Assembly: GCA_044892525.1 (NCBI GenBank)
Contig: JBJFYX010000158.1
Coordinates: 1 to 63,791, forward strand
Length of the DNA: 63,791 nucleotides
DNA from: Schmidtea polychroa
Taxonomy: Eukaryota
Direction of reading: 5' to 3'
Position 1 is the first letter of the stretch. Each line of letters starts with the position of its first letter. The notes under the pieces are model-generated. The model ran no database searches. It saw only the letters and a program-made list of their open reading frames with translations, and was not told the origin of the DNA. This document shows, piece after piece, positions 8,212 to 58,100 of this stretch. The translations under genes and the position numbers were made by a program.

Positions 8212-8520
8212 TATAATAATAATAAAGAATTTTCCAAAATATGCTTTTTAATATAAATTTTTATTTTTATTTGCAAATGATTATCATATATATTTTGTAT
8301 TTATTTTCAAGCAATTAATTTAATGCATTTTAAATGATTTTTTTATAAATTGTAAATAACTACTTGAGGGTGTTTATTGTTTAGGTTTCTCTTTATAATT
8401 TCGATAAATTGCAATTTTCTTAAATATATAAAATAAATTCAAATAATTTATAATACACATTCATAAATAGTAAATTTTATTTTTAATATAATTTATTGAA
8501 AAAATAATAAAAATAGTTAC

Positions 8521-14030: not shown

Positions 14031-14537
14031 CGTAAGGGAAGATTGCTTTCTAAAAGCTTTAGAAAATAACTTCTATTTTACAAAGGAGAATACTTATTTG
14101 TCTAACAAATGTTGCGGGTACACTACTCGGATGACCCCTTTCTAGTGCAACTTTAGTCTAGAGGATGAATGCCACCTCGATTTCGCCCATCATTTATTTG
14201 GTCATCGCCGAGCGGGACCCGTACATAACTTACACTCCAACATAGCACCCGTGAATTGCTTCGCGTTGGAACTGTGCTATGCCGGCGAGACGCCAGTAAG
14301 CAGGTGAGCCAGCTCCTTCGGACTACTCCTTACTGAGGCCTCGACTTCCCAACCCTGACTGCCGATAGAAGGACTTACGTCTACTCATTCCGTCGCCCCA
14401 TCGCAATATTTCTAGCTGAGTTTACCAACTGACTAATGCTCCTCATAATTTTATGACTCTCAATACCATTTACCAATTTCAACTCAACTGTCTTAAGATG
14501 AACACAAAGAAAAAAAAACGTATGCAGACAAATATGG

Positions 14538-14543
14538 TTTATT
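14538..14543 (-). terminator. Candidate LTR polyadenylation signal AATAAA (also 35038-35043 and 55538-55543)
   Basis: AATAAA on the minus strand downstream of the LTR ORF and about 430 bp from the LTR 3' end; function inferred. Confidence 0.35.
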
Positions 14544-14677
14544 ATTAAGATTATCACACAAATATATCTAACACCTATACAATAAAGTTCACGACAACGG
14601 GAAAAGAGACAAGGTAAAATGTTATCAGACAATGTTCAGGTCAATTCAGAGAACGAAGACTTTTTACGGGGAAGTTC

Positions 14678-15427
14678 TCATTTCTCCCACTCCGAGTCTG
14701 CCAATAGATCTTCCAAATCGAAAAACTCAGAGGCGTTTTCCTCCCAGGTAACACCAGCGGCGGAGATGATTCGCCCTGAGATCACTGATGCTAAATCAAT
14801 TGCTGCAGGAGGGTTGATGACTTTGATTGGATGATCCGACGATTGCTGGTTCTGTTTGGCGGTTACGCGTTCCCGCTGTTTCTTTTTGCGTTCGGCTCTC
14901 GATAATTGCCGACGCTTTGGCTTCGATGCCGTTGGGTTGATCGGGGGTGCTGCGGAGGTGGATGCTATCGCAGGTAGCACTTTACTGGTTCCGGTAAAGA
15001 TGATTTCTGGCCCTTTAGGTGAGAGCTCGGTCTCTACGCACCCATGGCAGGACTTTCCGACTGGAGAAGAAGATCCGCCAGAGATATCATGATGCGCGGG
15101 GAAAAGATTACTGGCTTCATTAATTGGGATCTTCGCGATCTTCCTTGTAGTCGCGGCCTGGACGTATAATTTGTGCAGCGCCTCCGACTGCTCTTTTATC
15201 AGGCTCCTCTGCGCCCGACTCTCGGAAATCAACGCGTCTCTACAGTGCTCGCTTCGGTGCAGCTTCTTCTGAACCTCCTTCATCTGGGTGGGACTAAACC
15301 ATGTCCCCTCTAACTCATCTATCCTTCTTTTGTGTTTTCCGATTTGGGCCTGGAGCTCTTTGATAATTGAATTCTTGTCGGAGCAAGAAAAACAAGGTCG
15401 AAGAACGGACTTGGAATTTGGCAACAT
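14678..15427 (-). CDS. LTR-embedded ORF, 249 aa (coiled coil, basic NLS-like stretch, acidic C-terminus)
   Basis: GC-richer intact ORF preceded by a strong acceptor ttttcattttcttttttcacag (ends 15437, in frame). No recognised homologue. Confidence 0.55.
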   Translation of the reverse strand: MLPNSKSVLRPCFSCSDKNSIIKELQAQIGKHKRRIDELEGTWFSPTQMKEVQKKLHRSEHCRDALISESRAQRSLIKEQSEALHKLYVQAATTRKIAKIPINEASNLFPAHHDISGGSSSPVGKSCHGCVETELSPKGPEIIFTGTSKVLPAIASTSAAPPINPTASKPKRRQLSRAERKKKQRERVTAKQNQQSSDHPIKVINPPAAIDLASVISGRIISAAGVTWEENASEFFDLEDLLADSEWEK

Positions 15428-18400
15428 TTTGAGCGACTGTGAAAAAAGAAAATGAAAATAATTAAATCAGCGGGAGTGTCACCATCTGACTACATTCATA
15501 CTGTACTGATCATAGACAAAAATATGGGTTTACCAGTCAAGACAAGTTCTACTACGCGATGGATTCTCGTACCCTTTCGGGGCTTTGATTATAAGAAGAT
15601 AAATCGATCAAACCAGATTTCACACAAGGAAAAGGAAGATATTACTATTTGTGAGAGAAATCTAGGTCGATGAAAAGGATTATTTATTTAATCCGCTTGG
15701 AGTCATTATTTCACGTTTACCGAGAATCGATTTAAATTGTCGACTTCTCCCCCCGTACGAGTGCTTTTAATGAGTGTATCATATACTGGGGTCGAGTGAC
15801 TATCTATGGAAAAGGGGTCCATAATGCCTGTTGATTAGTTCCTACAGGATAAACGGAAGGTTATTTAAATTTTTAATTGTTTATTCATTCTCTTTAATTA
15901 CTCACATATATGTTTTACCTGGTTTACATAATATTTATTTAACAATATTCGATATTTATATTAATGATAACTATGTCAAAAAATGAGATAATTTCGGTGC
16001 CATTCATGCTAAGATAATACAGAGAGAATAATCATAATTATGATCGAGTTTATCATTAAAAATTAGTGTCTTTATAACAACTGAGCACGGTATCCGTGTG
16101 AGCTAGTAGTCGACCATACCCGCTGGGTAGATAAGGTAATGTCAGCCCAGTGATTGACTCTTAATCCGGAGCGGTGAAATCTGATAGCTGTCGGTAGTTT
16201 AATTGGCATGTTCGATCTAATTTTACATGAGTAGATGCGTGTGTGACTTTGCCTACTGTACTTGGCTACTAGGTACGTCTGCAACTGGTGACGCATGCAA
16301 GGTGCGCTTTCACACACCTAATTATACTACAAATGCAGGCGTTGAAGGTTTGCATGATGGCATTCTCTCAGAATTTTATCCACCGCGTAATCACTCACAA
16401 TTCTACGGCATATGGTGATGATTTACTAATTCTCGCCGGATTATTGGAAAAATTCTAATTATCTGGATTGCAAATGTTGGATATAGCTTGCTCCAAGGGT
16501 GGATTTTTCGTCTTCAATTCCTCAAGCCTAGTTTATCAATCTACTCTCTAAGTGCTGGAGGATTTTTTCCTATCTCTGCTGGATTGCCAACCTCATGTAA
16601 TACTGGAATTTTGTATTTAACAAGATTATCGGCTAACTGGAAGAAATATATTTTCTTGGTTCGAATTGGTTGCATTTTCCATTGTTAAATTATTTGATGC
16701 CAATAGTTTAGGTAATTATGATAATTAATTGTATGTAAATATTTTTATACAAATAAAAAAAATTAATTGAAGTAAATTATTTTATGTAATTCAAAATTTT
16801 ATTTGGAACAAACTCGTTTTATGAAGTTCTAACAATTATCTGTAATAAATTATTTTACGTAGTTCTACAATTTATCCGTAAACAGTCATTTTGAATAATT
16901 CCAATAATTATCTGAAGTAATCTACTTTGAGCTTCCTTGCAACTATGTCTTTAAGAGAACTTTTAGATGAACGGAATAATAGTTCAAAGGGTTTTAGGGT
17001 AACAATTGGTCGGAACAGATTCTGAGTGAAAGGTATGAACATCAAAGATATGTCACAGATAGCCTCATTAAGGTTTGAACAATTTTTGACGCACAACCTA
17101 TATTGATGATAGAGAAATTTTTAGGCTTAGCAAAAACGATATTTGAAGACGATAGTGTGACACCCTCAATCACTGCGCGAATACATCAAAATTCTCCGAT
17201 TCCTTTATTACATATCTTTGTTTTCAATCACTACATGACTATCAATTTTCTGCCACCATTTACCTATAGATTTTAGTCGCACCTTCAGCAATTGGACCCG
17301 TGAAGAAGCCCTCACATTTCGGCCCAATCTAGCTGCGTGATTGAAATACCCTATGTCCACCGGTGGAGCTCCCGGAGGCACCTCACACCATGACATAGAG
17401 TATCTCAACGCCACGTTTCTCGCAAAATTGAATAGTCTCCAATAATAATTCATAAAAATTAATTCATAAAAGATCAATAATTCTTAACGAGCAAATCATT
17501 TATTATCGAGCAAATTATTTAAATAAAGCATTCTAAAATCAAACGAAAAGAAAAACCATTTTTTCTTTTTAAATTAAAAATATTATTAAACTATACGCAT
17601 TACTTAAAAATTCAAAATAAGCAATCAAAAAATCCTTACCGAATGATTGATACAAGTATGGGCTGAGTCGAAAAGGGTACTATGTCGAATCAGTTAATGC
17701 TCGAATATCGTCTAGTTCTGTAAAAATCTCTTGAATCTTGGAATTGTCCTCGTGAGTTATCGTGCGTTAGTTGCTGGAGTTCTGTTCTGTCGTAGAATAG
17801 ATTTACCTATTGAGGTGGTTGATTAACAGTGATTGTTATGTTTTTAATGCCTGCTTATATATTAATTTTTTGTTTGCGCGGACCAATTAGAATTGAGTAC
17901 CGCTTAATTTTATTAATTTAATTTATTTTCCTTGTTTTTGAGTTATTTCTTCTTACTTTCTTTATTAAAATTATGTTTTTATTTATTTTTCTTAATTTTC
18001 TTATTATTTACTATATTTTACGTTGTTTTCCGCCATTCTATTGTCCTATTTTAATTTTTTCTCATCTTTATATTTTTTGTTTTAATTCCTATTTTCTAAT
18101 TATTGTTTTTCTTATGTTTTATTCTATTTTGTTTGTCAATTTATTTGTTTTTATTTTTTATTTTATTTTAGTTAAGTTTGCCCTAATTTCCCAACTACCC
18201 TTCGATTCAGCCCAACAAATCACTCGGGGACCCATCAAAATTGCGTCCCGCAATTGCATAGTTATCTTACTTCATGCATTCATAAAAAGGATATATCGAA
18301 ACAATTATACTACAATAATAAAAACAATTTTATTCTAAGATATAGGTCAAATCAAGACCAAGCAAGTATCACTTAAGGTGATAGTTTGTATATACAATAA

Positions 18401-18577: not shown

Positions 18578-19060
18578 TTAAGATTTGTCAGTGGCACTTC
18601 TTGAGAATTTTTCGTAAATCTTCATGAGTATTGGTAGACATAGGAGGAGGGTTTCTGCGATCACCACATATATGAGATAATGGGTGTCATTGATTTCGGG
18701 AGGTGGTTTTGGCTTTTCTACAAGATTTTCAAAATTCTCTTGTTGCATTTGTTGTTCTAACTGGTCGAATTGTTGGATTTGTTCGAGGATTTGTTTGTTT
18801 ATCATTTTACAAATGGGATTCTTTTTACACATTGTTTGGATGTTGTTGATGTGTGAACGGGTTGATTGAAGGGTTTGGATGATATGGATTTTTACTGTCA
18901 TAGGGTATGTGCATTGGCCGGATTCTCGTTTAGGTTCTTGATTTTGATTTCGGTAATCTCGCACGATTTTCGGTTGGGCGTTTACTTGTTTGTTCTCCGT
19001 CAGAATCATCAATACCGTCATTGTTATCATCATCTCGCCTCGCATGATACTATTATACAT
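18578..19060 (-). CDS. Cargo ORF, 160 aa, putative type-I membrane protein
   Basis: N-terminal hydrophobic MMITMTVLMILTE..VNA, three Cys, and TM-like YLIYVVIAETLLLCLPILM. Confidence 0.6.
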   Translation of the reverse strand: MYNSIMRGEMMITMTVLMILTENKQVNAQPKIVRDYRNQNQEPKRESGQCTYPMTVKIHIIQTLQSTRSHINNIQTMCKKNPICKMINKQILEQIQQFDQLEQQMQQENFENLVEKPKPPPEINDTHYLIYVVIAETLLLCLPILMKIYEKFSRSATDKS

Positions 19061-19101: not shown

Positions 19102-19863
19102 TTAATGATTCTGGTTTGGGTTATTTTCGGCGATTCTCATCAGGGTGGATTCCGCTTTAATGACTCTGTGTCTTAACTCGGGCAGCATTTCCAACTGTCT
19201 GTTCTTTTCACGGGCCTCCCTTTTCATGTGCCTTATCTCCTTTTTCAGTCTCTTGATTTCTTCCCGTTTTTTGTCGAGATTCCTTCTTAGTTCGATTTGT
19301 AGGAAATCCTGTTCGTTTTCCTGCGAAAGGTTTCGTTGTTGTTGTTGTTGTTGTTTTCTCTCGATCTCTTGGTACTTGCGAATCCATTTCTTCATTTCCT
19401 CACTTTCTCGTTGTTTTTCCTCCAATTGTCGATTTAATTTATTTATAGTTATTTGGTGTTCTTTCGCCTCTGTTTTCCAATAATCTTGGATTACTTCTTC
19501 TGCCTTGAAGCTTGCCCTCTCTTGCCATAGTTCCTCTGCAATCTTTTCCCAGTTTCTTCCTCGTGTTCGTTGTTCTTGCAACCATTCATTCTTCTCTTCA
19601 GCTTCTCTCTTTATTTCTCCTAACGCTTCGCACTCCTTCTTTAGTATTTTAATCATTTTTCGGTCTTCTATATATTTGTTTATTAGTCTCTCGTTTTCGT
19701 CCCTCTCTTCCCGTAACTTGGCCTTTAACGTTTGTGTTTCTGTTGTTTCTGCCTCAATCTCTCCCTCTTCCACGTCGCTCGTAATTTCTATTATTTCCTC
19801 GATTTTCATATCTGTAATATGTACAGTTAATGGTGCGCTATAGTGCGACTTATACTTATGCAT
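19102..19863 (-). CDS. Cargo ORF, 253 aa, coiled-coil protein
   Basis: Intact E/K/R-rich heptad ORF with the same A-rich codon bias as the element. Confidence 0.7.
   Translation of the reverse strand: MHKYKSHYSAPLTVHITDMKIEEIIEITSDVEEGEIEAETTETQTLKAKLREERDENERLINKYIEDRKMIKILKKECEALGEIKREAEEKNEWLQEQRTRGRNWEKIAEELWQERASFKAEEVIQDYWKTEAKEHQITINKLNRQLEEKQRESEEMKKWIRKYQEIERKQQQQQQRNLSQENEQDFLQIELRRNLDKKREEIKRLKKEIRHMKREAREKNRQLEMLPELRHRVIKAESTLMRIAENNPNQNH

Positions 19864-19922: not shown

Positions 19923-19958
<36 letters not shown>
19923..19958 (-). repeat. Internal poly(A)36 tract (copy 2: 40423-40458)
   Basis: 36 T on the plus strand; AATAAA (minus strand, 19995-20000) lies about 37 nt upstream. 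Confidence 0.9.
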
Positions 19959-19960
<2 letters not shown>

Positions 19961-20005: not shown

Positions 20006-21061
20006 TTATACGAAGGTTTCCTCCTGTCCCACATAACCTTCGTCACTATCGACCGCTGGATGCAGCTGTATCGCAATAGGGTCATAGGGTAGGTAATATT
20101 GGGGGATTTGAGCTCTCAATTCACTAACTTCGTCTCTTAGAGCTCGAGTGATATTCAGCTCTTCGTCGAGCAGATAAGTGAGATACCTTGTCTCTTCGTC
20201 TTTCGCCTCTACTTGTCTATCTAAGGCCTTGATTTTCTCGTCGCCCTTCCATTTTTCAATTTCTATTTCCAAGTTTTTGATGTTTTCGGTATACATTTTC
20301 CTCTCGTTTTCCAATTTTCTGTTTTTTCCCGCCAGGACCATGTTTCTTTGTTCTAACGATCCTTGTAATCCATTAAGGTCTCTTTTCATCTCTTCGACCT
20401 GATTTACCAATTCCACCACCCGTCCTGCTTGCTGGGTTATCATCTCTTCCATTGCGGCATTCTCGTGCTCTCTTATGTCGCATTTTATTGCCAAATGTCG
20501 TTCAAACTCCATAGCCTTCATCTGCCATGTTTGGCTTCGGGCGGCGACCTTTTTCAACCGTTTCAGTTCTTCCTTTATTATTAAATTTTCCTCCCATTTA
20601 CCCTGTTCGCTCTCATATCCGAGTCTCATGGGCAATTCTTTCATCTCTTTTTTCATTTCATTGCTTTGTCTTTTCCATTTTCTCGCTTCTGCCACTAAGT
20701 GCATCATTTTCCTTCCTTCTATTTGCTTTTCCGCTTCGCGCTTGGTGTTTTCATCGGTAAGTCTCTTTCTCGCTTCCTGCACTAGCTGCTTTAAGTAGTG
20801 GCTGTGCGCTTCTTGGCGGGTATTTTCTAGTGACGCCCATTTTGATGCTCTTTTGCATGCTTCTGCTTCCGCTCTTAAGTTGTGTATTAACCATTGGTAT
20901 TGACTATTCTCATCCTCTCTAGTTTCTTCGATGTGATTTCGGGTGAGATTAGTTAGTTGGAACATTACTTTGTTCCATTTTTTGTTATGTTCTCGGGGAA
21001 TTTGTGTCTTGTTGACATTGGTTGGGGCTATCGCAGTTTCGGTTAGTTTCTCTTGTGTCAT
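20006..21061 (-). CDS. Cargo ORF, 351 aa, coiled-coil protein
   Basis: Long intact ORF with heptad character; no recognised family. Confidence 0.75.
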   Translation of the reverse strand: MTQEKLTETAIAPTNVNKTQIPREHNKKWNKVMFQLTNLTRNHIEETREDENSQYQWLIHNLRAEAEACKRASKWASLENTRQEAHSHYLKQLVQEARKRLTDENTKREAEKQIEGRKMMHLVAEARKWKRQSNEMKKEMKELPMRLGYESEQGKWEENLIIKEELKRLKKVAARSQTWQMKAMEFERHLAIKCDIREHENAAMEEMITQQAGRVVELVNQVEEMKRDLNGLQGSLEQRNMVLAGKNRKLENERKMYTENIKNLEIEIEKWKGDEKIKALDRQVEAKDEETRYLTYLLDEELNITRALRDEVSELRAQIPQYYLPYDPIAIQLHPAVDSDEGYVGQEETFV

Positions 21062-21254: not shown

Positions 21255-22643
21255 TTACTCCGTTCTACCCTTCTCCTCTTTCCTCACGGTCATCTTGATA
21301 TACACCGTGTCATTTCTTGCCATATCTTCTACTTTTTGTTGTAGGATGAACGTAGGTGCTCCTGTTGCTGATCCTTCTTCTGCCGTAGGTCTCTGGTAAC
21401 ACATTTGGTTTCCAGTTGTCTTGAAGCTTTGTTCGTGGATGCTTCGGTCATTCATTAGTGCAATATCGATTTTTGCCTGGAACGGCCACTCTATTATTTC
21501 GTCGTATTCCCCTTTACATAACAGAAAGAAAATCGAAAAGTGCGTATCTAATCCGGTTCCGTCCCCGTTGGGATATATCTTCATTTTCATTTTGTACCCA
21601 TTTTTCCAAGAATGGAATGCAGGACTTGTTATTCTTGTCTCTTCTCCGGTTTTTGCTTTTCGTATTCTTTCTTTTACTCCCGTTATTTTCCATATGTAGG
21701 GTGCTGTTGGGGTTATCTCATTTAGATTTATTTCCCGTATTTTCTGATGTAGCTCCTTGGCCTGATTATTACTGATTTCTATTCGGTTTATTTGCATCTT
21801 TATGTTTGCTCGGGCTTCTTCTAACGCTTCCCTTTCTTCTAGTAGTTCTTTGACTAACACTTTCAACGATGTTATCTCTATCTCCATTTGTTTTACTTTC
21901 TCTTCGCTTTCTTGTAACGCAGTCGACCACATTTCTGCGTGGGTTGAAGCATTTTCTACTAAATGATGTGGTAACTCACCTCGGTGTAGTAGTTTCTGAC
22001 AACCCCATCTACCTAGTACACATGTCATTCTTTTCTTTTCGCATTCCCTTAGATGCTGTGCCACCTTCATTATTTCCCCTTGGTTACATCCGTTTGGGCA
22101 TTCCGCACTGAACTCTGCACATACTCTCTCCTCTTGGACATTGTGATGTTTGAGGGTGAGATTTTTCCACGTATCTATTTCTCCACAGTGTTCACATCTT
22201 TCCAATCTCTCTTCACACTGCCTTTGATGCTCTTTTTCTTCGCTTGCTCGAATGGTTTTATGGCACCTTTCACACTGGCCAATTCTGTACATACATTCTC
22301 CCATATGTTGTACTACCTTCCATATTACTCCTTTCCATTCGCATGGGGCATTTTTGCATCCCAGGTTGGTGTTTAACATGTCTTTCACTGCGGCTTTATC
22401 CTCGTTAGTGTCTTCTAACCTCGATATTAGTGTCTCTTTACACACCGGGCACCTCTGTGGTCTATTCTTTATTGCTTCACTGATACATTCTTTACATACT
22501 CTGCATCCACATTGCGTTTGGTGAGGTTCCTTTAACAACTTTTCACATATTCCGCACATAACATGTTTGTGTATTCTGATCGTTGTAGATTTTCGGACTT
22601 GCTCGACAATCTCTCTGAACTCTTCTCTTTGTCGTTTATCCAT
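21255..22643 (-). CDS. TRAF: TNF receptor-associated factor (TRAF)-like protein, intronless, element-borne
   Basis: RING CGICEKLLKEPHQTQCGCRVCKEC..RCPVC; TRAF zinc fingers; coiled coil; MATH domain (YIWKI..SPAF..GYKMKMKIYPNGDG..THFSIFFLLCKGEYDEIIEWPF). Confidence 0.95.
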   Translation of the reverse strand: MDKRQREEFREIVEQVRKSTTIRIHKHVMCGICEKLLKEPHQTQCGCRVCKECISEAIKNRPQRCPVCKETLISRLEDTNEDKAAVKDMLNTNLGCKNAPCEWKGVIWKVVQHMGECMYRIGQCERCHKTIRASEEKEHQRQCEERLERCEHCGEIDTWKNLTLKHHNVQEERVCAEFSAECPNGCNQGEIMKVAQHLRECEKKRMTCVLGRWGCQKLLHRGELPHHLVENASTHAEMWSTALQESEEKVKQMEIEITSLKVLVKELLEEREALEEARANIKMQINRIEISNNQAKELHQKIREINLNEITPTAPYIWKITGVKERIRKAKTGEETRITSPAFHSWKNGYKMKMKIYPNGDGTGLDTHFSIFFLLCKGEYDEIIEWPFQAKIDIALMNDRSIHEQSFKTTGNQMCYQRPTAEEGSATGAPTFILQQKVEDMARNDTVYIKMTVRKEEKGRTE

Positions 22644-22728
22644 TCTATAATTATATGTACAAATAGTTCTTATCGATACAGGTTCGATATTTTATTTACA
22701 ATTATTTACATTTTAAGCTAGGTTTGGT

Positions 22729-23088
22729 TTAGGGTTCGGAAGAGTCGGCTTCGTGTCCGCTCTCCTCTCTATTCATTAGCCATTCCGACCAGTCTTCTAT
22801 TTCTGTCTGTTCTGCTTCCTCCATCATTCTGTCTAGCTCGATTTCCTGTCTACGGCTATATTGGGTTATCCTCTCTATCTCTCTTTGCATTTGTTCGATT
22901 TTCAATCTCTGGTCTTCAATTATTTTCAAATAACTAAATCCTCTATTCATACTCTCGATTAGGTTTCTGTGCATCGTCAATCCTTGTTCTTGCAAATTGG
23001 ACACTAATTGTGCTAATACGGCACATTGTTGCTTCCATAATTCTTCAGTTACTGTATTGTGGTTCATTTCGTTATTTCCTTGATCCAT
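22729..23088 (-). CDS. Cargo ORF, ~119 aa from first ATG (short coiled coil)
   Basis: The ORF track start at 23112 is TTG; the first ATG is at 23088 (MDQGNNE...). Confidence 0.55.
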   Translation of the reverse strand: MDQGNNEMNHNTVTEELWKQQCAVLAQLVSNLQEQGLTMHRNLIESMNRGFSYLKIIEDQRLKIEQMQREIERITQYSRRQEIELDRMMEEAEQTEIEDWSEWLMNREESGHEADSSEP

Positions 23089-29227: not shown

Positions 29228-29537
29228 TCGTCAACAACATACTATCTATTGTCCATAATTCATCATCTTTGATCATCTCGTTGGTCACTTTCGGTAATTC
29301 TATGTCCATCATTGGGGTCAATCTTCCCAATTTTTCGTTCTCATAAATGATTTTGTCTTCCTCTTCGAAATTCGTGATGTTGAGCGGTATCACTCCTTCT
29401 TGGTTTATTGTGATTATTTCTCTTGCGAGTGGTAATTCTCGTCGCTTTTCAAATGACTTGCTTGGTTCAAAGATAACTTCTCCTTCCATACCCGTATCCA
29501 ATCGAAAAGTTCGTCGGTGACTGTATTTTTTATCCAC
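29184..29537 (-). CDS. Gag-Pol linker segment in the -1 frame (pre-RT domain)
   Basis: EGEVIFEP..LAREII..IPLNITN..ENEKLGRL resembles the segment between protease and RT in gypsy Pol and leads naturally into LLTNDEKKK/LHRLLVEYKDIF. Confidence 0.65.
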   Translation of the reverse strand: MDKKYSHRRTFRLDTGMEGEVIFEPSKSFEKRRELPLAREIITINQEGVIPLNITNFEEEDKIIYENEKLGRLTPMMDIELPKVTNEMIKDDELWTIDSMLLTNDEKKKIAPIVGRI

Positions 29538-31576
29538 ATTCTTTCAAGTCCTCTACTCGTTCCGATTTTTATTACATACCGCGTGGTATCTGCCTGCTTC
29601 ATTTTTTCCATATACTTTTTTATAATTGATTTTTCCTCGTTTGGTATTAAATCTTTCTCGTTTCTTTCCAATTTCATCACTTTTTGCACGAATCGCCTGA
29701 ATGATATTACGTCGATGAACTCTTGGTTTCTCACTACCGCCGGGAGTATTTCGGCTACCTGTTTTATCGCTTCCTCCCTTGCTTTTCTCAACTTTATTTC
29801 GATATCCTCGTCTTCACTTCCACTTGTTATCTCGCTTTCGCTTTCTTCCTCTTTGATTTCCCCTTTTGGAGGTTCGCTTATTTCGTTTAGCTGTAGTATT
29901 TCTCCACCCAAACTACTTACATAATCTTCTTCTTCGTCTGACGATGCTACATCTTTTGTCCTTTTCATCATATTGATTTGCAAATTTCTCATCCTTGGTA
30001 CTCTCTTTAGTTTCTTTCTTTCGAATATCGTTGTTTCTTCTGATTCTAATTCTTGTAGCATTTGGTGGTTTAGTTGACTGGTTTGTTCCTTGCTCTTGTT
30101 ATTTTCATCTTCTGTCTCGGCTTTCGCTTTATTATGTTCTTTTTCGATTTTATCTTTTATCTTTTTCCAGAATATTTTCTGAATTCTCTGGTTTCCTTTT
30201 AAAATCGTGGTTGAATTCTCTGTTTTCATTTCCGTTGTTGTTTCTGTTACCTTTTCTGGTTCAGTCATGGGTACTACCCTTGGGTTTTTCCCGTAATTGT
30301 AGCAATACTGGCTTTTCATGTCTTTTACTAACTTCATCATATTAATTCGCAATGGTTGTTCTTGTCGTTGTTGGTTGCGTTCTTGTTTTATCCTCTCTTC
30401 CTCGGCCTGTAGTCTTTGCCATTCTTGTACATGTTGATGCACTTCATAATTGTTGAGATTTTCGGTACTCCTCATCATACGTATATTCTGGGTTTGTTGT
30501 GGTGCTGATTCCGGTCTCGGTCTCATCATTTGTTGCATCATCTGTTTCATCTGCGAGATTTCCTGCATAACGTTCATTTGTTTTCCTTCGCTAGGGTTAC
30601 TTTGTCGTTGCGGATTCGCCATATAATTATTATTTCGCTGTGGTGGTCGTTGTTGTTGGCCCCTTTCTCGGCAATCTCTGGAGATGTGACCTGGCTGACC
30701 ACAGTTAAAACAACCTCTCAATTGGCATACATTTTCGGTATGTCCACGCCGTCCGCAACGATTACAATTTGAATTTCTATAGCAATCTCTGTCCCAGTGT
30801 CCTGGTTTACCGCATGTTCGACACTGCTTGTTATCGTTCATATTTCGTCGATTATTAAAATTGTTCTCATTATTCGGGTTGTTACGATTACCATTATTCC
30901 CATTTGATCGTCCTTGTGGTGGTTTGAAAATTTGGTGCGCTCCTGGTATAAATTGATTCATTTTCGGTTCTTGATTGTTGTTATCTCCGTTATCCGCTTT
31001 CGCTATTGCTGTCATTATCCTTCCCTCCTCTTGCATAATATTCATTTGAGCTGGAAGGTGGAGCTCACATCTTGTAGCCCAATCTATGGCTTCCTCTAAT
31101 GTTTTGCACATTTGACAACCTACTGAGGCTCTTACTTCTTCTCGGCGTAATCCCTCTATGAAATAACCGATCAGATTTTCTTCGGGTAATTTTCCATTCA
31201 TTGCTTTCTTCGCTAATCTCCGCAATTCACTGGCATATAATGTTATCGATTCGTTTGCTCTTTGTTTCCTATTTGCTAGTTCGCCCAACGCCTGGTTGAT
31301 TGGCTTACTGGCTCCGAAGGTTTTCTTCAGGAATGTTTTGATATCTTCCCACTTTTCCAATTTCGTATCTCTCTCTTTAGCTTCTAAATATACTTCTAAT
31401 GCGCTATCGCACAAAAACAACGGCATCCTTTTACTAATTGCTTCGGGTGTCCATCCACACACAGTGATATAAACTTCAAAATTAGTTATGAACGGTGCTA
31501 GCTTGTTTGCATTTCCGTTGAACGGTTCTCCTCTGAACTTCTCTTTATACTCGTCGGTTTTTACGACATTCGTCAT
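29414..31576 (-). CDS. gag: Gag (capsid + three CCHC zinc knuckles + long Q/E-rich extension)
   Basis: Capsid motif RKQRANESITLYASELRRLAKKA; knuckles CRTCGKPGHWDRDC, CNRCGRRGHTENVC, CFNCGQPGHISRDC. Confidence 0.93.
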   Translation of the reverse strand: MTNVVKTDEYKEKFRGEPFNGNANKLAPFITNFEVYITVCGWTPEAISKRMPLFLCDSALEVYLEAKERDTKLEKWEDIKTFLKKTFGASKPINQALGELANRKQRANESITLYASELRRLAKKAMNGKLPEENLIGYFIEGLRREEVRASVGCQMCKTLEEAIDWATRCELHLPAQMNIMQEEGRIMTAIAKADNGDNNNQEPKMNQFIPGAHQIFKPPQGRSNGNNGNRNNPNNENNFNNRRNMNDNKQCRTCGKPGHWDRDCYRNSNCNRCGRRGHTENVCQLRGCFNCGQPGHISRDCRERGQQQRPPQRNNNYMANPQRQSNPSEGKQMNVMQEISQMKQMMQQMMRPRPESAPQQTQNIRMMRSTENLNNYEVHQHVQEWQRLQAEEERIKQERNQQRQEQPLRINMMKLVKDMKSQYCYNYGKNPRVVPMTEPEKVTETTTEMKTENSTTILKGNQRIQKIFWKKIKDKIEKEHNKAKAETEDENNKSKEQTSQLNHQMLQELESEETTIFERKKLKRVPRMRNLQINMMKRTKDVASSDEEEDYVSSLGGEILQLNEISEPPKGEIKEEESESEITSGSEDEDIEIKLRKAREEAIKQVAEILPAVVRNQEFIDVISFRRFVQKVMKLERNEKDLIPNEEKSIIKKYMEKMKQADTTRYVIKIGTSRGLERMWIKNTVTDELFDWIRVWKEKLSLNQASHLKSDENYHSQEK

Positions 31577-33797: not shown

Positions 33798-34334
33798 TTA
33801 TTCACCATAATAAACCATATGAGTTTCTTTTATTTCATGCCTACATATCGTACATCGTTTTAAATCGTTCACACATTCTTCGCAGTGACTGAGGTGTCCA
33901 CGCGGCAAAAACAGTACGCGAATAGGACGAAGTTTACAAGCACGACAAGTTCGTAGTAGAGTCAGTTTTTCTTGTATTTTCCGCTCGATTGTATCTGATA
34001 TGGTATTTAGTGGATCTTTTATACGTTGATAATCAAGATTTAATGCTGGGTGGTTCAATCTCTCTTGATACCATTGATACACGGTTTCCGGGTTTACCTT
34101 CCCCTCTGGGTGACTTAGTCCTGTGGCTAATAACATGTGGTTGGGGACGGCTGGTGTTTGCCCGATTGCTTGAAGTAGTATGATGTTAATTCTTTCTCTT
34201 TTTTGTGTCAGCGTTTTAAGGGAGTCATTCTCGATGTTTATGAAGTTGATTAGTTGTTGTATCTGGTCCACGAATTCCGTCATGTCTATTAAAAAAAATG
34301 TTTCAGTAATATATGACTTCGTTTCGTCAAACAT
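33798..34334 (-). CDS. 178-aa ORF with C-terminal IAP/MDM2-type RING (one Cys replaced by Arg)
   Basis: CRACKLRPIRVLFLPRGHLSHCEECVNDLKRCTICRHEI at the extreme C-terminus, as in IAPs. No BIR domain seen. Confidence 0.75.
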   Translation of the reverse strand: MFDETKSYITETFFLIDMTEFVDQIQQLINFINIENDSLKTLTQKRERINIILLQAIGQTPAVPNHMLLATGLSHPEGKVNPETVYQWYQERLNHPALNLDYQRIKDPLNTISDTIERKIQEKLTLLRTCRACKLRPIRVLFLPRGHLSHCEECVNDLKRCTICRHEIKETHMVYYGE

Positions 34335-34584: not shown

Positions 34585-34602
34585 ATCCCGGCTGAGCCCC
34601 CA
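34585..34602 (-). promoter_or_regulatory. Primer-binding site, tRNA-Pro type
   Basis: Minus strand TGGGGGCTCAGCCGGGAT matches the classic tRNA-Pro PBS TGGGGGCTCGTCCGGGAT at 16/18; located 7 nt from the LTR. Confidence 0.85.
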
Positions 34603-34609
34603 AAAATTA

Positions 34610-37600
34610 TGTTGCGGGTACACTACTCGGATGACCCCTTTCTAGTGCAACTTTAGTCTAGAGGATGAATGCCACCTCGATTTCGCCCATCATTTATTTG
34701 GTCATCGCCGAGCGGGACCCGTACATAACTTACACTCCAACATAGCACCCGTGAATTGCTTCGCGTTGGAACTGTGCTATGCCGGCGAGACGCCAGTAAG
34801 CAGGTGAGCCAGCTCCTTCGGACTACTCCTTACTGAGGCCTCGACTTCCCAACCCTGACTGCCGATAGAAGGACTTACGTCTACTCATTCCGTCGCCCCA
34901 TCGCAATATTTCTAGCTGAGTTTACCAACTGACTAATGCTCCTCATAATTTTATGACTCTCAATACCATTTACCAATTTCAACTCAACTGTCTTAAGATG
35001 AACACAAAGAAAAAAAAACGTATGCAGACAAATATGGTTTATTATTAAGATTATCACACAAATATATCTAACACCTATACAATAAAGTTCACGACAACGG
35101 GAAAAGAGACAAGGTAAAATGTTATCAGACAATGTTCAGGTCAATTCAGAGAACGAAGACTTTTTACGGGGAAGTTCTCATTTCTCCCACTCCGAGTCTG
35201 CCAATAGATCTTCCAAATCGAAAAACTCAGAGGCGTTTTCCTCCCAGGTAACACCAGCGGCGGAGATGATTCGCCCTGAGATCACTGATGCTAAATCAAT
35301 TGCTGCAGGAGGGTTGATGACTTTGATTGGATGATCCGACGATTGCTGGTTCTGTTTGGCGGTTACGCGTTCCCGCTGTTTCTTTTTGCGTTCGGCTCTC
35401 GATAATTGCCGACGCTTTGGCTTCGATGCCGTTGGGTTGATCGGGGGTGCTGCGGAGGTGGATGCTATCGCAGGTAGCACTTTACTGGTTCCGGTAAAGA
35501 TGATTTCTGGCCCTTTAGGTGAGAGCTCGGTCTCTACGCACCCATGGCAGGACTTTCCGACTGGAGAAGAAGATCCGCCAGAGATATCATGATGCGCGGG
35601 GAAAAGATTACTGGCTTCATTAATTGGGATCTTCGCGATCTTCCTTGTAGTCGCGGCCTGGACGTATAATTTGTGCAGCGCCTCCGACTGCTCTTTTATC
35701 AGGCTCCTCTGCGCCCGACTCTCGGAAATCAACGCGTCTCTACAGTGCTCGCTTCGGTGCAGCTTCTTCTGAACCTCCTTCATCTGGGTGGGACTAAACC
35801 ATGTCCCCTCTAACTCATCTATCCTTCTTTTGTGTTTTCCGATTTGGGCCTGGAGCTCTTTGATAATTGAATTCTTGTCGGAGCAAGAAAAACAAGGTCG
35901 AAGAACGGACTTGGAATTTGGCAACATTTTGAGCGACTGTGAAAAAAGAAAATGAAAATAATTAAATCAGCGGGAGTGTCACCATCTGACTACATTCATA
36001 CTGTACTGATCATAGACAAAAATATGGGTTTACCAGTCAAGACAAGTTCTACTACGCGATGGATTCTCGTACCCTTTCGGGGCTTTGATTATAAGAAGAT
36101 AAATCGATCAAACCAGATTTCACACAAGGAAAAGGAAGATATTACTATTTGTGAGAGAAATCTAGGTCGATGAAAAGGATTATTTATTTAATCCGCTTGG
36201 AGTCATTATTTCACGTTTACCGAGAATCGATTTAAATTGTCGACTTCTCCCCCCGTACGAGTGCTTTTAATGAGTGTATCATATACTGGGGTCGAGTGAC
36301 TATCTATGGAAAAGGGGTCCATAATGCCTGTTGATTAGTTCCTACAGGATAAACGGAAGGTTATTTAAATTTTTAATTGTTTATTCATTCTCTTTAATTA
36401 CTCACATATATGTTTTACCTGGTTTACATAATATTTATTTAACAATATTCGATATTTATATTAATGATAACTATGTCAAAAAATGAGATAATTTCGGTGC
36501 CATTCATGCTAAGATAATACAGAGAGAATAATCATAATTATGATCGAGTTTATCATTAAAAATTAGTGTCTTTATAACAACTGAGCACGGTATCCGTGTG
36601 AGCTAGTAGTCGACCATACCCGCTGGGTAGATAAGGTAATGTCAGCCCAGTGATTGACTCTTAATCCGGAGCGGTGAAATCTGATAGCTGTCGGTAGTTT
36701 AATTGGCATGTTCGATCTAATTTTACATGAGTAGATGCGTGTGTGACTTTGCCTACTGTACTTGGCTACTAGGTACGTCTGCAACTGGTGACGCATGCAA
36801 GGTGCGCTTTCACACACCTAATTATACTACAAATGCAGGCGTTGAAGGTTTGCATGATGGCATTCTCTCAGAATTTTATCCACCGCGTAATCACTCACAA
36901 TTCTACGGCATATGGTGATGATTTACTAATTCTCGCCGGATTATTGGAAAAATTCTAATTATCTGGATTGCAAATGTTGGATATAGCTTGCTCCAAGGGT
37001 GGATTTTTCGTCTTCAATTCCTCAAGCCTAGTTTATCAATCTACTCTCTAAGTGCTGGAGGATTTTTTCCTATCTCTGCTGGATTGCCAACCTCATGTAA
37101 TACTGGAATTTTGTATTTAACAAGATTATCGGCTAACTGGAAGAAATATATTTTCTTGGTTCGAATTGGTTGCATTTTCCATTGTTAAATTATTTGATGC
37201 CAATAGTTTAGGTAATTATGATAATTAATTGTATGTAAATATTTTTATACAAATAAAAAAAATTAATTGAAGTAAATTATTTTATGTAATTCAAAATTTT
37301 ATTTGGAACAAACTCGTTTTATGAAGTTCTAACAATTATCTGTAATAAATTATTTTACGTAGTTCTACAATTTATCCGTAAACAGTCATTTTGAATAATT
37401 CCAATAATTATCTGAAGTAATCTACTTTGAGCTTCCTTGCAACTATGTCTTTAAGAGAACTTTTAGATGAACGGAATAATAGTTCAAAGGGTTTTAGGGT
37501 AACAATTGGTCGGAACAGATTCTGAGTGAAAGGTATGAACATCAAAGATATGTCACAGATAGCCTCATTAAGGTTTGAACAATTTTTGACGCACAACCTA

Positions 37601-38717
37601 TATTGATGATAGAGAAATTTTTAGGCTTAGCAAAAACGATATTTGAAGACGATAGTGTGACACCCTCAATCACTGCGCGAATACATCAAAATTCTCCGAT
37701 TCCTTTATTACATATCTTTGTTTTCAATCACTACATGACTATCAATTTTCTGCCACCATTTACCTATAGATTTTAGTCGCACCTTCAGCAATTGGACCCG
37801 TGAAGAAGCCCTCACATTTCGGCCCAATCTAGCTGCGTGATTGAAATACCCTATGTCCACCGGTGGAGCTCCCGGAGGCACCTCACACCATGACATAGAG
37901 TATCTCAACGCCACGTTTCTCGCAAAATTGAATAGTCTCCAATAATAATTCATAAAAATTAATTCATAAAAGATCAATAATTCTTAACGAGCAAATCATT
38001 TATTATCGAGCAAATTATTTAAATAAAGCATTCTAAAATCAAACGAAAAGAAAAACCATTTTTTCTTTTTAAATTAAAAATATTATTAAACTATACGCAT
38101 TACTTAAAAATTCAAAATAAGCAATCAAAAAATCCTTACCGAATGATTGATACAAGTATGGGCTGAGTCGAAAAGGGTACTATGTCGAATCAGTTAATGC
38201 TCGAATATCGTCTAGTTCTGTAAAAATCTCTTGAATCTTGGAATTGTCCTCGTGAGTTATCGTGCGTTAGTTGCTGGAGTTCTGTTCTGTCGTAGAATAG
38301 ATTTACCTATTGAGGTGGTTGATTAACAGTGATTGTTATGTTTTTAATGCCTGCTTATATATTAATTTTTTGTTTGCGCGGACCAATTAGAATTGAGTAC
38401 CGCTTAATTTTATTAATTTAATTTATTTTCCTTGTTTTTGAGTTATTTCTTCTTACTTTCTTTATTAAAATTATGTTTTTATTTATTTTTCTTAATTTTC
38501 TTATTATTTACTATATTTTACGTTGTTTTCCGCCATTCTATTGTCCTATTTTAATTTTTTCTCATCTTTATATTTTTTGTTTTAATTCCTATTTTCTAAT
38601 TATTGTTTTTCTTATGTTTTATTCTATTTTGTTTGTCAATTTATTTGTTTTTATTTTTTATTTTATTTTAGTTAAGTTTGCCCTAATTTCCCAACTACCC
38701 TTCGATTCAGCCCAACA
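34610..38717 (-). repeat. LTR 2 (shared central LTR)
   Basis: Flanked by internal-region sequence on both sides. Confidence 0.97.
35178..35927 (-). CDS. LTR-embedded 249-aa ORF, copy 2
   Basis: Identical translation to 14678-15427. Confidence 0.55.
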   Translation of the reverse strand: MLPNSKSVLRPCFSCSDKNSIIKELQAQIGKHKRRIDELEGTWFSPTQMKEVQKKLHRSEHCRDALISESRAQRSLIKEQSEALHKLYVQAATTRKIAKIPINEASNLFPAHHDISGGSSSPVGKSCHGCVETELSPKGPEIIFTGTSKVLPAIASTSAAPPINPTASKPKRRQLSRAERKKKQRERVTAKQNQQSSDHPIKVINPPAAIDLASVISGRIISAAGVTWEENASEFFDLEDLLADSEWEK

Positions 38718-41754: not shown

Positions 41755-43143
41755 TTACTCCGTTCTACCCTTCTCCTCTTTCCTCACGGTCATCTTGATA
41801 TACACCGTGTCATTTCTTGCCATATCTTCTACTTTTTGTTGTAGGATGAACGTAGGTGCTCCTGTTGCTGATCCTTCTTCTGCCGTAGGTCTCTGGTAAC
41901 ACATTTGGTTTCCAGTTGTCTTGAAGCTTTGTTCGTGGATGCTTCGGTCATTCATTAGTGCAATATCGATTTTTGCCTGGAACGGCCACTCTATTATTTC
42001 GTCGTATTCCCCTTTACATAACAGAAAGAAAATCGAAAAGTGCGTATCTAATCCGGTTCCGTCCCCGTTGGGATATATCTTCATTTTCATTTTGTACCCA
42101 TTTTTCCAAGAATGGAATGCAGGACTTGTTATTCTTGTCTCTTCTCCGGTTTTTGCTTTTCGTATTCTTTCTTTTACTCCCGTTATTTTCCATATGTAGG
42201 GTGCTGTTGGGGTTATCTCATTTAGATTTATTTCCCGTATTTTCTGATGTAGCTCCTTGGCCTGATTATTACTGATTTCTATTCGGTTTATTTGCATCTT
42301 TATGTTTGCTCGGGCTTCTTCTAACGCTTCCCTTTCTTCTAGTAGTTCTTTGACTAACACTTTCAACGATGTTATCTCTATCTCCATTTGTTTTACTTTC
42401 TCTTCGCTTTCTTGTAACGCAGTCGACCACATTTCTGCGTGGGTTGAAGCATTTTCTACTAAATGATGTGGTAACTCACCTCGGTGTAGTAGTTTCTGAC
42501 AACCCCATCTACCTAGTACACATGTCATTCTTTTCTTTTCGCATTCCCTTAGATGCTGTGCCACCTTCATTATTTCCCCTTGGTTACATCCGTTTGGGCA
42601 TTCCGCACTGAACTCTGCACATACTCTCTCCTCTTGGACATTGTGATGTTTGAGGGTGAGATTTTTCCACGTATCTATTTCTCCACAGTGTTCACATCTT
42701 TCCAATCTCTCTTCACACTGCCTTTGATGCTCTTTTTCTTCGCTTGCTCGAATGGTTTTATGGCACCTTTCACACTGGCCAATTCTGTACATACATTCTC
42801 CCATATGTTGTACTACCTTCCATATTACTCCTTTCCATTCGCATGGGGCATTTTTGCATCCCAGGTTGGTGTTTAACATGTCTTTCACTGCGGCTTTATC
42901 CTCGTTAGTGTCTTCTAACCTCGATATTAGTGTCTCTTTACACACCGGGCACCTCTGTGGTCTATTCTTTATTGCTTCACTGATACATTCTTTACATACT
43001 CTGCATCCACATTGCGTTTGGTGAGGTTCCTTTAACAACTTTTCACATATTCCGCACATAACATGTTTGTGTATTCTGATCGTTGTAGATTTTCGGACTT
43101 GCTCGACAATCTCTCTGAACTCTTCTCTTTGTCGTTTATCCAT
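41755..43143 (-). CDS. TRAF: TRAF-like protein, copy 2
   Basis: Identical translation to 21255-22643. Confidence 0.95.
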   Translation of the reverse strand: MDKRQREEFREIVEQVRKSTTIRIHKHVMCGICEKLLKEPHQTQCGCRVCKECISEAIKNRPQRCPVCKETLISRLEDTNEDKAAVKDMLNTNLGCKNAPCEWKGVIWKVVQHMGECMYRIGQCERCHKTIRASEEKEHQRQCEERLERCEHCGEIDTWKNLTLKHHNVQEERVCAEFSAECPNGCNQGEIMKVAQHLRECEKKRMTCVLGRWGCQKLLHRGELPHHLVENASTHAEMWSTALQESEEKVKQMEIEITSLKVLVKELLEEREALEEARANIKMQINRIEISNNQAKELHQKIREINLNEITPTAPYIWKITGVKERIRKAKTGEETRITSPAFHSWKNGYKMKMKIYPNGDGTGLDTHFSIFFLLCKGEYDEIIEWPFQAKIDIALMNDRSIHEQSFKTTGNQMCYQRPTAEEGSATGAPTFILQQKVEDMARNDTVYIKMTVRKEEKGRTE

Positions 43144-55109: not shown

Positions 55110-58100
55110 TGTTGCGGGTACACTACTCGGATGACCCCTTTCTAGTGCAACTTTAGTCTAGAGGATGAATGCCACCTCGATTTCGCCCATCATTTATTTG
55201 GTCATCGCCGAGCGGGACCCGTACATAACTTACACTCCAACATAGCACCCGTGAATTGCTTCGCGTTGGAACTGTGCTATGCCGGCGAGACGCCAGTAAG
55301 CAGGTGAGCCAGCTCCTTCGGACTACTCCTTACTGAGGCCTCGACTTCCCAACCCTGACTGCCGATAGAAGGACTTACGTCTACTCATTCCGTCGCCCCA
55401 TCGCAATATTTCTAGCTGAGTTTACCAACTGACTAATGCTCCTCATAATTTTATGACTCTCAATACCATTTACCAATTTCAACTCAACTGTCTTAAGATG
55501 AACACAAAGAAAAAAAAACGTATGCAGACAAATATGGTTTATTATTAAGATTATCACACAAATATATCTAACACCTATACAATAAAGTTCACGACAACGG
55601 GAAAAGAGACAAGGTAAAATGTTATCAGACAATGTTCAGGTCAATTCAGAGAACGAAGACTTTTTACGGGGAAGTTCTCATTTCTCCCACTCCGAGTCTG
55701 CCAATAGATCTTCCAAATCGAAAAACTCAGAGGCGTTTTCCTCCCAGGTAACACCAGCGGCGGAGATGATTCGCCCTGAGATCACTGATGCTAAATCAAT
55801 TGCTGCAGGAGGGTTGATGACTTTGATTGGATGATCCGACGATTGCTGGTTCTGTTTGGCGGTTACGCGTTCCCGCTGTTTCTTTTTGCGTTCGGCTCTC
55901 GATAATTGCCGACGCTTTGGCTTCGATGCCGTTGGGTTGATCGGGGGTGCTGCGGAGGTGGATGCTATCGCAGGTAGCACTTTACTGGTTCCGGTAAAGA
56001 TGATTTCTGGCCCTTTAGGTGAGAGCTCGGTCTCTACGCACCCATGGCAGGACTTTCCGACTGGAGAAGAAGATCCGCCAGAGATATCATGATGCGCGGG
56101 GAAAAGATTACTGGCTTCATTAATTGGGATCTTCGCGATCTTCCTTGTAGTCGCGGCCTGGACGTATAATTTGTGCAGCGCCTCCGACTGCTCTTTTATC
56201 AGGCTCCTCTGCGCCCGACTCTCGGAAATCAACGCGTCTCTACAGTGCTCGCTTCGGTGCAGCTTCTTCTGAACCTCCTTCATCTGGGTGGGACTAAACC
56301 ATGTCCCCTCTAACTCATCTATCCTTCTTTTGTGTTTTCCGATTTGGGCCTGGAGCTCTTTGATAATTGAATTCTTGTCGGAGCAAGAAAAACAAGGTCG
56401 AAGAACGGACTTGGAATTTGGCAACATTTTGAGCGACTGTGAAAAAAGAAAATGAAAATAATTAAATCAGCGGGAGTGTCACCATCTGACTACATTCATA
56501 CTGTACTGATCATAGACAAAAATATGGGTTTACCAGTCAAGACAAGTTCTACTACGCGATGGATTCTCGTACCCTTTCGGGGCTTTGATTATAAGAAGAT
56601 AAATCGATCAAACCAGATTTCACACAAGGAAAAGGAAGATATTACTATTTGTGAGAGAAATCTAGGTCGATGAAAAGGATTATTTATTTAATCCGCTTGG
56701 AGTCATTATTTCACGTTTACCGAGAATCGATTTAAATTGTCGACTTCTCCCCCCGTACGAGTGCTTTTAATGAGTGTATCATATACTGGGGTCGAGTGAC
56801 TATCTATGGAAAAGGGGTCCATAATGCCTGTTGATTAGTTCCTACAGGATAAACGGAAGGTTATTTAAATTTTTAATTGTTTATTCATTCTCTTTAATTA
56901 CTCACATATATGTTTTACCTGGTTTACATAATATTTATTTAACAATATTCGATATTTATATTAATGATAACTATGTCAAAAAATGAGATAATTTCGGTGC
57001 CATTCATGCTAAGATAATACAGAGAGAATAATCATAATTATGATCGAGTTTATCATTAAAAATTAGTGTCTTTATAACAACTGAGCACGGTATCCGTGTG
57101 AGCTAGTAGTCGACCATACCCGCTGGGTAGATAAGGTAATGTCAGCCCAGTGATTGACTCTTAATCCGGAGCGGTGAAATCTGATAGCTGTCGGTAGTTT
57201 AATTGGCATGTTCGATCTAATTTTACATGAGTAGATGCGTGTGTGACTTTGCCTACTGTACTTGGCTACTAGGTACGTCTGCAACTGGTGACGCATGCAA
57301 GGTGCGCTTTCACACACCTAATTATACTACAAATGCAGGCGTTGAAGGTTTGCATGATGGCATTCTCTCAGAATTTTATCCACCTCGTAATCACTCACAA
57401 TTCTACGGCATATGGTGATGATTTACTAATTCTCGCCGGATTATTGGAAAAATTCTAATTATCTGGATTGCAAATGTTGGATATAGCTTGCTCCAAGGGT
57501 GGATTTTTCGTCTTCAATTCCTCAAGCCTAGTTTATCAATCTACTCTCTAAGTGCTGGAGGATTTTTTCCTATCTCTGCTGGATTGCCAACCTCATGTAA
57601 TACTGGAATTTTGTATTTAACAAGATTATCGGCTAACTGGAAGAAATATATTTTCTTGGTTCGAATTGGTTGCATTTTCCATTGTTAAATTATTTGATGC
57701 CAATAGTTTAGGTAATTATGATAATTAATTGTATGTAAATATTTTTATACAAATAAAAAAAATTAATTGAAGTAAATTATTTTATGTAATTCAAAATTTT
57801 ATTTGGAACAAACTCGTTTTATGAAGTTCTAACAATTATCTGTAATAAATTATTTTACGTAGTTCTACAATTTATCCGTAAACAGTCATTTTGAATAATT
57901 CCAATAATTATCTGAAGTAATCTACTTTGAGCTTCCTTGCAACTATGTCTTTAAGAGAACTTTTAGATGAACGGAATAATAGTTCAAAGGGTTTTAGGGT
58001 AACAATTGGTCGGAACAGATTCTGAGTGAAAGGTATGAACATCAAAGATATGTCACAGATAGCCTCATTAAGGTTTGAACAATTTTTGACGCACAACCTA

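Follow-up and report, generated by a model that had tools for sequence, protein, structure and literature searches.

A full-length TRAF gene carried by a giant Burro-type LTR element of Schmidtea polychroa

The TRAF gene and its carrier element

The stretch of DNA analysed here, hereafter the window, comprises 63,791 bp of the Schmidtea polychroa contig JBJFYX010000158.1. Its minus strand contains a TRAF reading frame that is intact from ATG to stop (Table 1). Pfam detected a C3HC4-type RING at aa 29-68 (PF00097, E=1.3e-4) and a MATH domain at aa 316-453 (PF22486, E=1e-25), and the solved TRAF6, TRAF5 and TRAF2 structures aligned to the RING and the first zinc fingers with a best E-value of 3e-15. 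An AlphaFold2 model based on an alignment of 84 sequences had a mean pLDDT of 93.5 and predicted a long helix at residues 232-309 together with the strand pattern of a MATH domain, its best Foldseek matches being domains of TRAF3, TRAF1 and TRAF2. A single-sequence model was set aside (pLDDT 48). The ORF call, Pfam, the alignments and the model bear out the original prediction of an intact gene for 462 aa that combines, in one frame, the N-terminal RING, TRAF-type zinc fingers, coiled coil and C-terminal MATH domain by which the TRAF family is recognised. Eight cysteines with the spacing of a RING (C30, C33, C45, C47, C50, C53, C65 and C68) are the putative zinc ligands. As had been pointed out, the RING reads CGCRVC where the solved TRAF5 and TRAF6 chains read CGHRFC, the alignment placing the exchanged cysteine at position 47. 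Compared with the solved vertebrate TRAF2, TRAF3, TRAF5 and TRAF6, the domain order and the MATH fold are alike, but the element protein has an all-cysteine RING, fewer zinc fingers and only about 30% identity. The A-rich codon use that had been likened to that of the neighbouring frames was found at four-fold sites as well: the TRAF gene (A 0.53, T 0.11) matches gag (0.53 and 0.12) and pol (0.54 and 0.11) and differs from eight host single-frame TRAFs (A 0.32-0.44, T 0.26-0.41).

Table 1. Features of the TRAF gene and its carrier element, with positions in the window.
Feature	Position	Strand	Basis
Full-length TRAF ORF, 462 aa	21255..22643	-	ORF call, Pfam, structure alignments, AlphaFold2 model
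RING, all-cysteine, aa 30-68; Cys47 versus His in solved TRAF5/6	22440..22556	-	Pfam, alignment
TRAF-type zinc fingers, aa 96-235, including long-loop finger aa 150-186 common to triclad host TRAFs	21939..22358	-	Alignments
Coiled-coil helix (predicted), aa 232-309	21717..21950	-	AlphaFold2 model
MATH / TRAF-C domain, aa 316-453	21285..21698	-	Pfam, alignment, Foldseek
Second TRAF copy, identical, in tandem unit	41755..43143	-	Sequence comparison
Non-coding cassette before TRAF start: doubled TGTAAATAA-type motif, AT-rich tract, TAG one base before ATG	22644..22720	-	Family comparison
3' LTR, 4108 bp, TG...CA	14110..18217	-	Repeat comparison
Shared middle LTR, identical to 14110-18217	34610..38717	-	Repeat comparison
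5' LTR of tandem, 1 mismatch versus other two	55110..59217	-	Repeat comparison
4-bp target-site duplication CAAA	14106..14109, partner 59218-59221	.	Sequence
Primer-binding-site-like 18-mer, 7 nt after LTR	34585..34602	-	Sequence
178-aa ORF, IAP-type RING, no BIR, upstream of gag	33798..34334	-	Pfam
Gag (Retrotrans_gag, CCHC knuckles), truncated through internal deletion	29414..31576	-	Pfam
5.5-kb internal deletion junction	29483..29504	-	Comparison with longer copy
RT–RNase H–integrase–ankyrin ORF, 1992 aa	23249..29227	-	Pfam
119-aa accessory ORF, before TRAF in families A, B and C	22729..23088	-	Family comparison
351-aa charged accessory ORF; homologues after TRAF in all three families	20006..21061	-	Family comparison
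253-aa charged accessory ORF	19102..19863	-	ORF call
160-aa accessory ORF, no Pfam match	18578..19060	-	ORF call, Pfam

The TRAF gene sits between 4108-bp LTRs with TG...CA ends, and the window has the layout LTR–internal–LTR–internal–LTR with a period of 20,500 bp and two mismatches in all. Each internal region encodes, in minus-strand order, the IAP-type RING ORF, gag, the RT–RNase H–integrase–ankyrin ORF, the 119-aa ORF, TRAF, and the 351-, 253- and 160-aa ORFs. The 18-mer next to the middle LTR may resemble a tRNA-Pro site; ARAGORN detected no tRNA within the window, and no clear purine-rich tract was seen just before the 3' LTR (17973-18300, coding strand). Protease and Env-like domains were absent from the window insertion according to Pfam. 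At the deletion point, a longer copy of the same family, here termed family A, has an extra 5.5 kb that continues the Gag frame with a fusion domain of the Monjiviricetes type and then a retroviral protease; this copy (L142) has a frame of 2779 aa that runs to the end of L142 and contains PF24664 (E=2e-70) and then PF00077. The window insertion measures 24.6 kb, having been shortened through the 5.5-kb deletion. Family A tandems have a period of 26.2 kb, which gives 30.3 kb together with a 4.1-kb LTR, and other tandems with this period are present in the genome.

The deletion junction had three matches, located only in the window and at one chromosomal place (G000:C3, about 89.9 Mb), the flanks of which are 100% identical over 6483 and 4207 bases. 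This locus holds a single unit between its identical flanks, and the view that the tandem of the window is a proven real structure was therefore rejected; the tandem may have arisen as a duplicate in the assembly or may represent an allelic variant. The insertion site at the chromosomal locus lies between an innexin exon and a Tmem26-like gene (window 8517-9250; L144:1015-2544).

Several further features of the window were recorded. One RING cysteine of the IAP-type 178-aa ORF reads Arg in the window and Cys in copy L141. The end of the pol ORF (23249-24300) has two hydrophobic stretches, one signal-like and one membrane-like by eye, which are conserved in families B and C, are distinct from the Env domain and have no Pfam match. 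Each LTR contains a 249-aa ORF (14678-15427), also without Pfam match, that has homologues in a related solo LTR (L063, 75%) and in the LTRs of family B. A long A-tract on the minus strand (19924-19960), located between the 351- and 253-aa ORFs, is present in the window insertion and absent from copies L071, L141, L143 and L150. Lastly, two 592-bp inverted arms (980-1571 and 7193-7784), which are 99% complementary, 5.6 kb apart and built with 27-bp sub-repeats, are likely to represent a fold-back element or a DNA transposon.

Element families, copy number and selection

The Burro elements of Schmidtea mediterranea (Burro1/GYPSM1 and Burro-2 to -4) have been described as giant gypsy-like elements of about 30 kb with long LTRs, with a polyprotein that unites Gag, Env, protease, RT, RNase H, integrase and ankyrin repeats in one frame, and with MATH_TRAF_C, BIR and ankyrin cargo (PMC6431247). 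By likeness to this published description, family A can be classed as a Burro-type sister family: it exceeds 30 kb with long LTRs, its longer copy has Env in frame between Gag and protease, RT, RNase H and integrase are followed by ankyrin repeats, and MATH_TRAF_C cargo is present. It does not appear to be Burro1 itself, because BIR-type IAP cargo is lacking and only the IAP-type RING ORF is found. Family C, in contrast, matches the description of Burro1 closely, with a 4791-aa frame that contains an internal MATH domain (210 exact-word matches) and a BIR–RING IAP ORF directly after TRAF; its RT region is 81% identical to that of the window. Family A further differs from the S. mediterranea Burro elements in having no MATH domain in the polyprotein stretch scanned and in carrying TRAF as a separate full-length RING–zinc finger–coiled coil–MATH ORF downstream of pol, whereas the account of the cargo in PMC6431247 mentions the MATH_TRAF_C domain only. 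The Burro-like element of Dugesia (Girardia) tigrina is similar to family A in this respect, since MATH_TRAF_C is absent from its polyprotein and resides in a separate accessory ORF, but that ORF is described as lying upstream rather than downstream of pol (PMC6431247). BCL2-like, SUMO-like and dUTPase-like motifs were not detected by Pfam in L142:4064-9700 or in the Burro1-like L076:1502-7801; HHpred was the tool used in the corresponding part of PMC6431247.

A protein search of the genome with the TRAF sequence, in which 92 of 1966 candidates were scored after being picked by score, returned 92 copies that are all 95-100% identical, 91 of them stop-free. Counting exact words, we found at least 109 TRAF cassettes in family A (exact 21-mer), 124 in family B and 212 in family C, partial copies included, and all four control patterns gave 0 matches. 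The three families share the same TRAF slot (pol, 119-aa ORF, TRAF, 351-aa ORF), the TRAF identities for A, B and C being 100, 69 and 29%. More than 400 cassettes thus occupy one fixed slot, on all four large contigs, and the element TRAF copies outnumber the host TRAF loci seen. In one family B copy (L115:1-2814), pol and TRAF form a single 1789-aa frame, apparently through loss of the intervening ORF.

Among the first 30 family A loci picked by position, 24 were intact and full length, 2 were partial, 3 had a stop and 1 had a frameshifting deletion. The mean pairwise dN/dS of their 28 distinct sequences was 0.16, as calculated by the simple Nei-Gojobori method on non-independent pairs from a sample that required an exact 21-mer in the coiled coil. 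By domain, the values were 0.10 for the RING, 0.14 for the zinc fingers, 0.21 for the coiled coil and 0.17 for MATH, and the two neighbouring ORFs gave 0.12 and 0.16. The comparison of families A and B gave a dN/dS of 0.075 with dS near saturation, while one pair each within B and C gave 0.13 and 0.12. A first estimate of 0.14 was biased, being based on 30 copies chosen by protein score plus L071, and the analysis was redone on the position-picked copies. The Cys and His residues of the RING and fingers were invariant in all covering copies among the 30. Because the signal is large and consistent, we accept purifying selection despite the simplicity of the method. The substitution pattern (dN/dS 0.075-0.16, putative zinc ligands invariant) indicates that the element TRAF is under purifying selection, as the original prediction had supposed.

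Host TRAFs and the origin of the element gene

For the host, 150 of 1551 candidates of a genome-wide MATH search were scored and the best 30 classified. Six of these run from RING to MATH in a single frame, 22 belong to tandem clusters of a single chromosome and have MATH in a frame of its own, and the other two are a TRAF4-like exon and a single frame without RING. Three further single-frame genes emerged from the element-family searches, giving nine host loci in which a single frame spans RING to MATH; six of the eight that were checked have an in-frame Met ahead of the RING. The clusters (G000:C2, about 1-5 Mb and 105-124 Mb; L037-L060) consist of short TRAFs with a RING, one zinc finger, a coiled coil and the separately framed MATH, and eight of their genes form a clade of their own in a MATH-only tree (100/99). 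The host therefore has a genuine tandem TRAF expansion. The view that the entire expansion is element-borne was rejected, since 22 of the best 30 MATH matches lie in host clusters and the eight on the tree group apart from the elements. The expectation that a multicopy element inflates the apparent TRAF family size was correct in so far as the element is multicopy and its copies exceed the host loci seen, but it left out this expansion of the host's own genes.

All nine host single-frame TRAFs read CGC[RK] in the RING. The same replacement of His by Cys is seen in three echinoderm proteins of the TRAF3-like type and in three Dendrocoelum proteins named as TRAFs; of 78 matches to the RING motif among 152 database proteins, 63 have His and 15 have Cys. 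The cysteine had been pointed out as a departure from canonical TRAFs, and its interpretation as an element innovation was rejected in view of these proteins. Since it also occurs in echinoderms, the CGCR RING is, on alignment evidence, a weak marker of origin. The lack of introns had been taken as a sign of capture from mRNA, an argument that fails with nine host loci of the same single-frame build. As the host single-frame TRAFs have both the intronless state and the RING cysteine, neither feature needs an element-specific explanation. None of the element's internal accessory ORFs was found in the 10-kb surroundings of seven host TRAFs; one related solo LTR and pieces of unrelated retroelements are located within a few kb of these genes.

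Against each of the host TRAFs compared, the window TRAF has an identity of 27-35%. A first tree of 34 rows had been made by a quick method and contained long branches; 13 rows (long branches, near duplicates) were dropped and two host TRAF4-like exons added. The resulting 23-row tree, which provides the comparison of host and element genes called for in the original prediction, unites the TRAFs of the three element families in one clade (99/99). This clade lies inside the triclad TRAF group with a support of 92/92, which is below the support mark of the tool, and no specific host sister was resolved. Grouping of the element TRAFs with canonical TRAF2/3 was not rejected by an AU test (p=0.069), and the element branches are long and compositionally odd, which counts against a triclad donor. 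The long-loop zinc finger is present in 6 of 7 element rows and in 6 of 9 rows of host single-frame genes, but among 152 database proteins it occurs in only 6, and the three of these that have names are from Dendrocoelum. The best named full-length database matches of the TRAF were from Dendrocoelum and Dugesia. In the MATH-only tree, the MATH domain of the family C polyprotein joins the element TRAFs (93/91). Word-index searches with the TRAF and with an alignment of five element TRAFs scored nothing, although a full HMMER scan gave 6141 matches, so that this result is no proof of absence; the same applies to a metagenome scan that found no relative.

The closest counterparts in build are the triclad single-exon TRAFs (Dendrocoelum lacteum TRAF-2, -4 and -5, Dugesia japonica TRAF-2A, and the host loci L031-L034, L036, L111 and L112), which resemble the element TRAF in their length of about 450-480 aa, CGC[RK] RING, long-loop zinc finger, short array of fingers, and single coding frame. 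They are, however, only 29-33% identical to it, have host codon use and lack any element context. The long-loop finger, the CGCR RING and the tree suggest that the donor was probably a member of this host single-exon subfamily. In the simplest reading, there was likely one old capture from the host, with a later duplication of MATH alone into the polyprotein of family C. An old retro-capture of a host mRNA had been envisaged originally; capture and age fit our results, but the mRNA route is unproven. The likely donor group encodes RING to MATH in one coding frame, and a parent with coding introns, as expected for a retrocopy, was not found. Intron loss as proof of the mRNA route was accordingly rejected. 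The 193 nt that follow the stop codon of TRAF contain no A-tract, although an old capture could have lost such a poly(A) remnant. LTR elements usually capture genes by template switching onto co-packaged host RNA. A template-switch capture is likely also here, while the data are equally compatible with capture at the DNA level. Intronless host TRAFs, combined with near-identity of this copy to an adjacent cellular locus, or relaxed selection, had been named as outcomes that would speak against a captured and maintained gene; host genes of this type are indeed intronless, but the low identity to all of them and the undiminished constraint speak for it.

Expression and proposed function

Far downstream of the first ORF, TRAF needs a message of its own. 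Families A, B and C have all kept the doubled TGTAAATAA-type motif, the AT-rich tract and, one or two bases ahead of the ATG, a TAG, and the final 12 bases of the cassette before the ATG are identical in 29 of 30 copies. Three further accessory ORFs, two of family C and one of family A, likewise start 0-3 bases after a TAG. This conservation suggests that the cassette is likely a splice acceptor, following a poly(A) signal, or a promoter, and TRAF would then have an mRNA of its own, either spliced or separately initiated. The TRAF region is covered piecewise by contigs of two studies, and four runs guessed to be RNA contained no splice joint or leader-like loose end at the TRAF start, which is uninformative on expression.

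TRAFs trimerise, bind the tails of receptors or adaptors, and build or recruit ubiquitin chains through their RING. We consider it fairly probable that the full-length TRAF is an accessory gene of a Burro-type element that was likely captured once, has been kept by selection, and likely serves, in cells with an active element, as a ubiquitin-signalling adaptor that promotes survival. According to this scheme, a single captured host single-exon TRAF would have become an accessory gene of a giant Ty3/gypsy element; its product would trimerise via the coiled coil and MATH domain, MATH would bind receptor or adaptor tails, and the retained RING would, as an E2-dependent ligase, build or recruit ubiquitin chains. 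Jointly with the element's IAP-type gene, this could prolong the survival of the host cell until the element has been copied. Host planarian TRAFs are required for cell survival (PMC7586133), and the IAP of Burro1 has been reported to protect stem cells (Lee et al. 2026 as cited in PMC13465017). The adjacency of TRAF and IAP in family C is in favour of a pro-survival role; in family A, Pfam detected no BIR, so that there is no wholly element-encoded TRAF–IAP pair. Burro1 RNAi failed to rescue the loss of smedwi-2 (PMC8532177), a finding that has no direct bearing on TRAF but does not point to a large effect under those conditions.

The captured TRAF could instead join host TRAF trimers or receptors as a decoy and dampen innate immune or stress signalling, like viral antagonists of the TRAF pathway. 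Its identity of about 30% to every host TRAF would suit such a role, and the viral-type fusion protein of full-length family members makes immune pressure plausible. The 'RxY' and 'SGCP' motifs of MATH act in receptor binding, and in the alignment to TRAF1/3 they read KxY and TGAP in the element protein. A pure dominant-negative protein, however, usually loses its RING, whereas here the RING is the most constrained domain and retains all putative zinc ligands. We therefore regard the decoy role as unlikely, if worth keeping in mind; its outcome can overlap with the pro-survival one, as both favour survival of the carrier cell. A still less probable view is that TRAF serves the element's own cycle, for example in ubiquitin-dependent handling of Gag or Env or in the removal of restriction factors, without any effect on survival signalling. 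Selection as strong as that on the structural ORFs, and the presence of several charged accessory ORFs of no known family, would be consistent with this, but all of the signalling architecture, with the MATH that binds receptors, has been kept in three families, and the remaining cargo of host origin is related to apoptosis, both by Pfam here and in the cargo described in PMC6431247. It is hardly credible that TRAF is carried along passively, or that an element was inserted into a host gene, even though the host has intronless and clustered TRAFs of this build. The single slot shared by the many cassettes, their element codon use and the lack of the element's accessory ORFs in the 10-kb flanks of host TRAFs speak against it, and the low dN/dS already refutes it.

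Returning to the pro-survival reading, a bolder version would have full-length TRAF and IAP, each translated from its own spliced mRNA, form a Burro survival module that supplies a real share of planarian TRAF/MATH transcripts and signalling; we put this forward tentatively and consider it rather doubtful. If true, a TRAF adaptor would join the IAP in the reported mutualism, and some of the TRAF expansion published for planarians would consist of transposon cargo. The Burro1 B-IAP mutualism between host and transposon (Lee et al. 2026 as cited in PMC13465017) concerns a captured apoptosis regulator in the same kind of element, but the work, as cited there, tested an IAP, and no function of the TRAF cassette is mentioned there.

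The expansion of planarian TRAFs has been reported as 121 to 282 MATH-domain transcripts and called inconclusive (PMC6109357, PMC7586133). The passages of these papers that treat it do not link it to elements, and the word 'transposon' is absent from the text of PMC7586133. Burro is mentioned in PMC8532177, PMC11410931 and PMC13238120, with no occurrence of TRAF in the parts of these texts concerned. The original prediction overlooked that TRAF-domain cargo is published for such elements (PMC6431247). The kind of element and its MATH_TRAF domain cargo are already known; the new details are the complete architecture, the selection, the single origin and the counts. Our literature search did not reveal any account of a full-length TRAF in an element, or of its selection or origin, although Jurka 2007, Grohme 2018, Lee 2026 or the Burro supplements may already show the ORF. 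What the element carries is an entire adaptor that is under selection, not just a stray MATH domain, and it provides a second testable cargo beside the IAP. As regards the size of the planarian TRAF family, it is useful that the element clade and codon use separate element-borne copies from host single-exon and tandem-cluster genes, and element copies should be masked in the design of TRAF RNAi or in counts of TRAF genes in planarians.

Lastly, a search with the RT–integrase region retrieved only generic gypsy polyproteins at ≤50% identity, none of them named Burro. Among these are unnamed long polyproteins (P0172-P0193) with an RT–integrase identity of 47-50%, several of which have the PF24664 fusion domain or ankyrin repeats; they may represent Burro-like elements in other animals.
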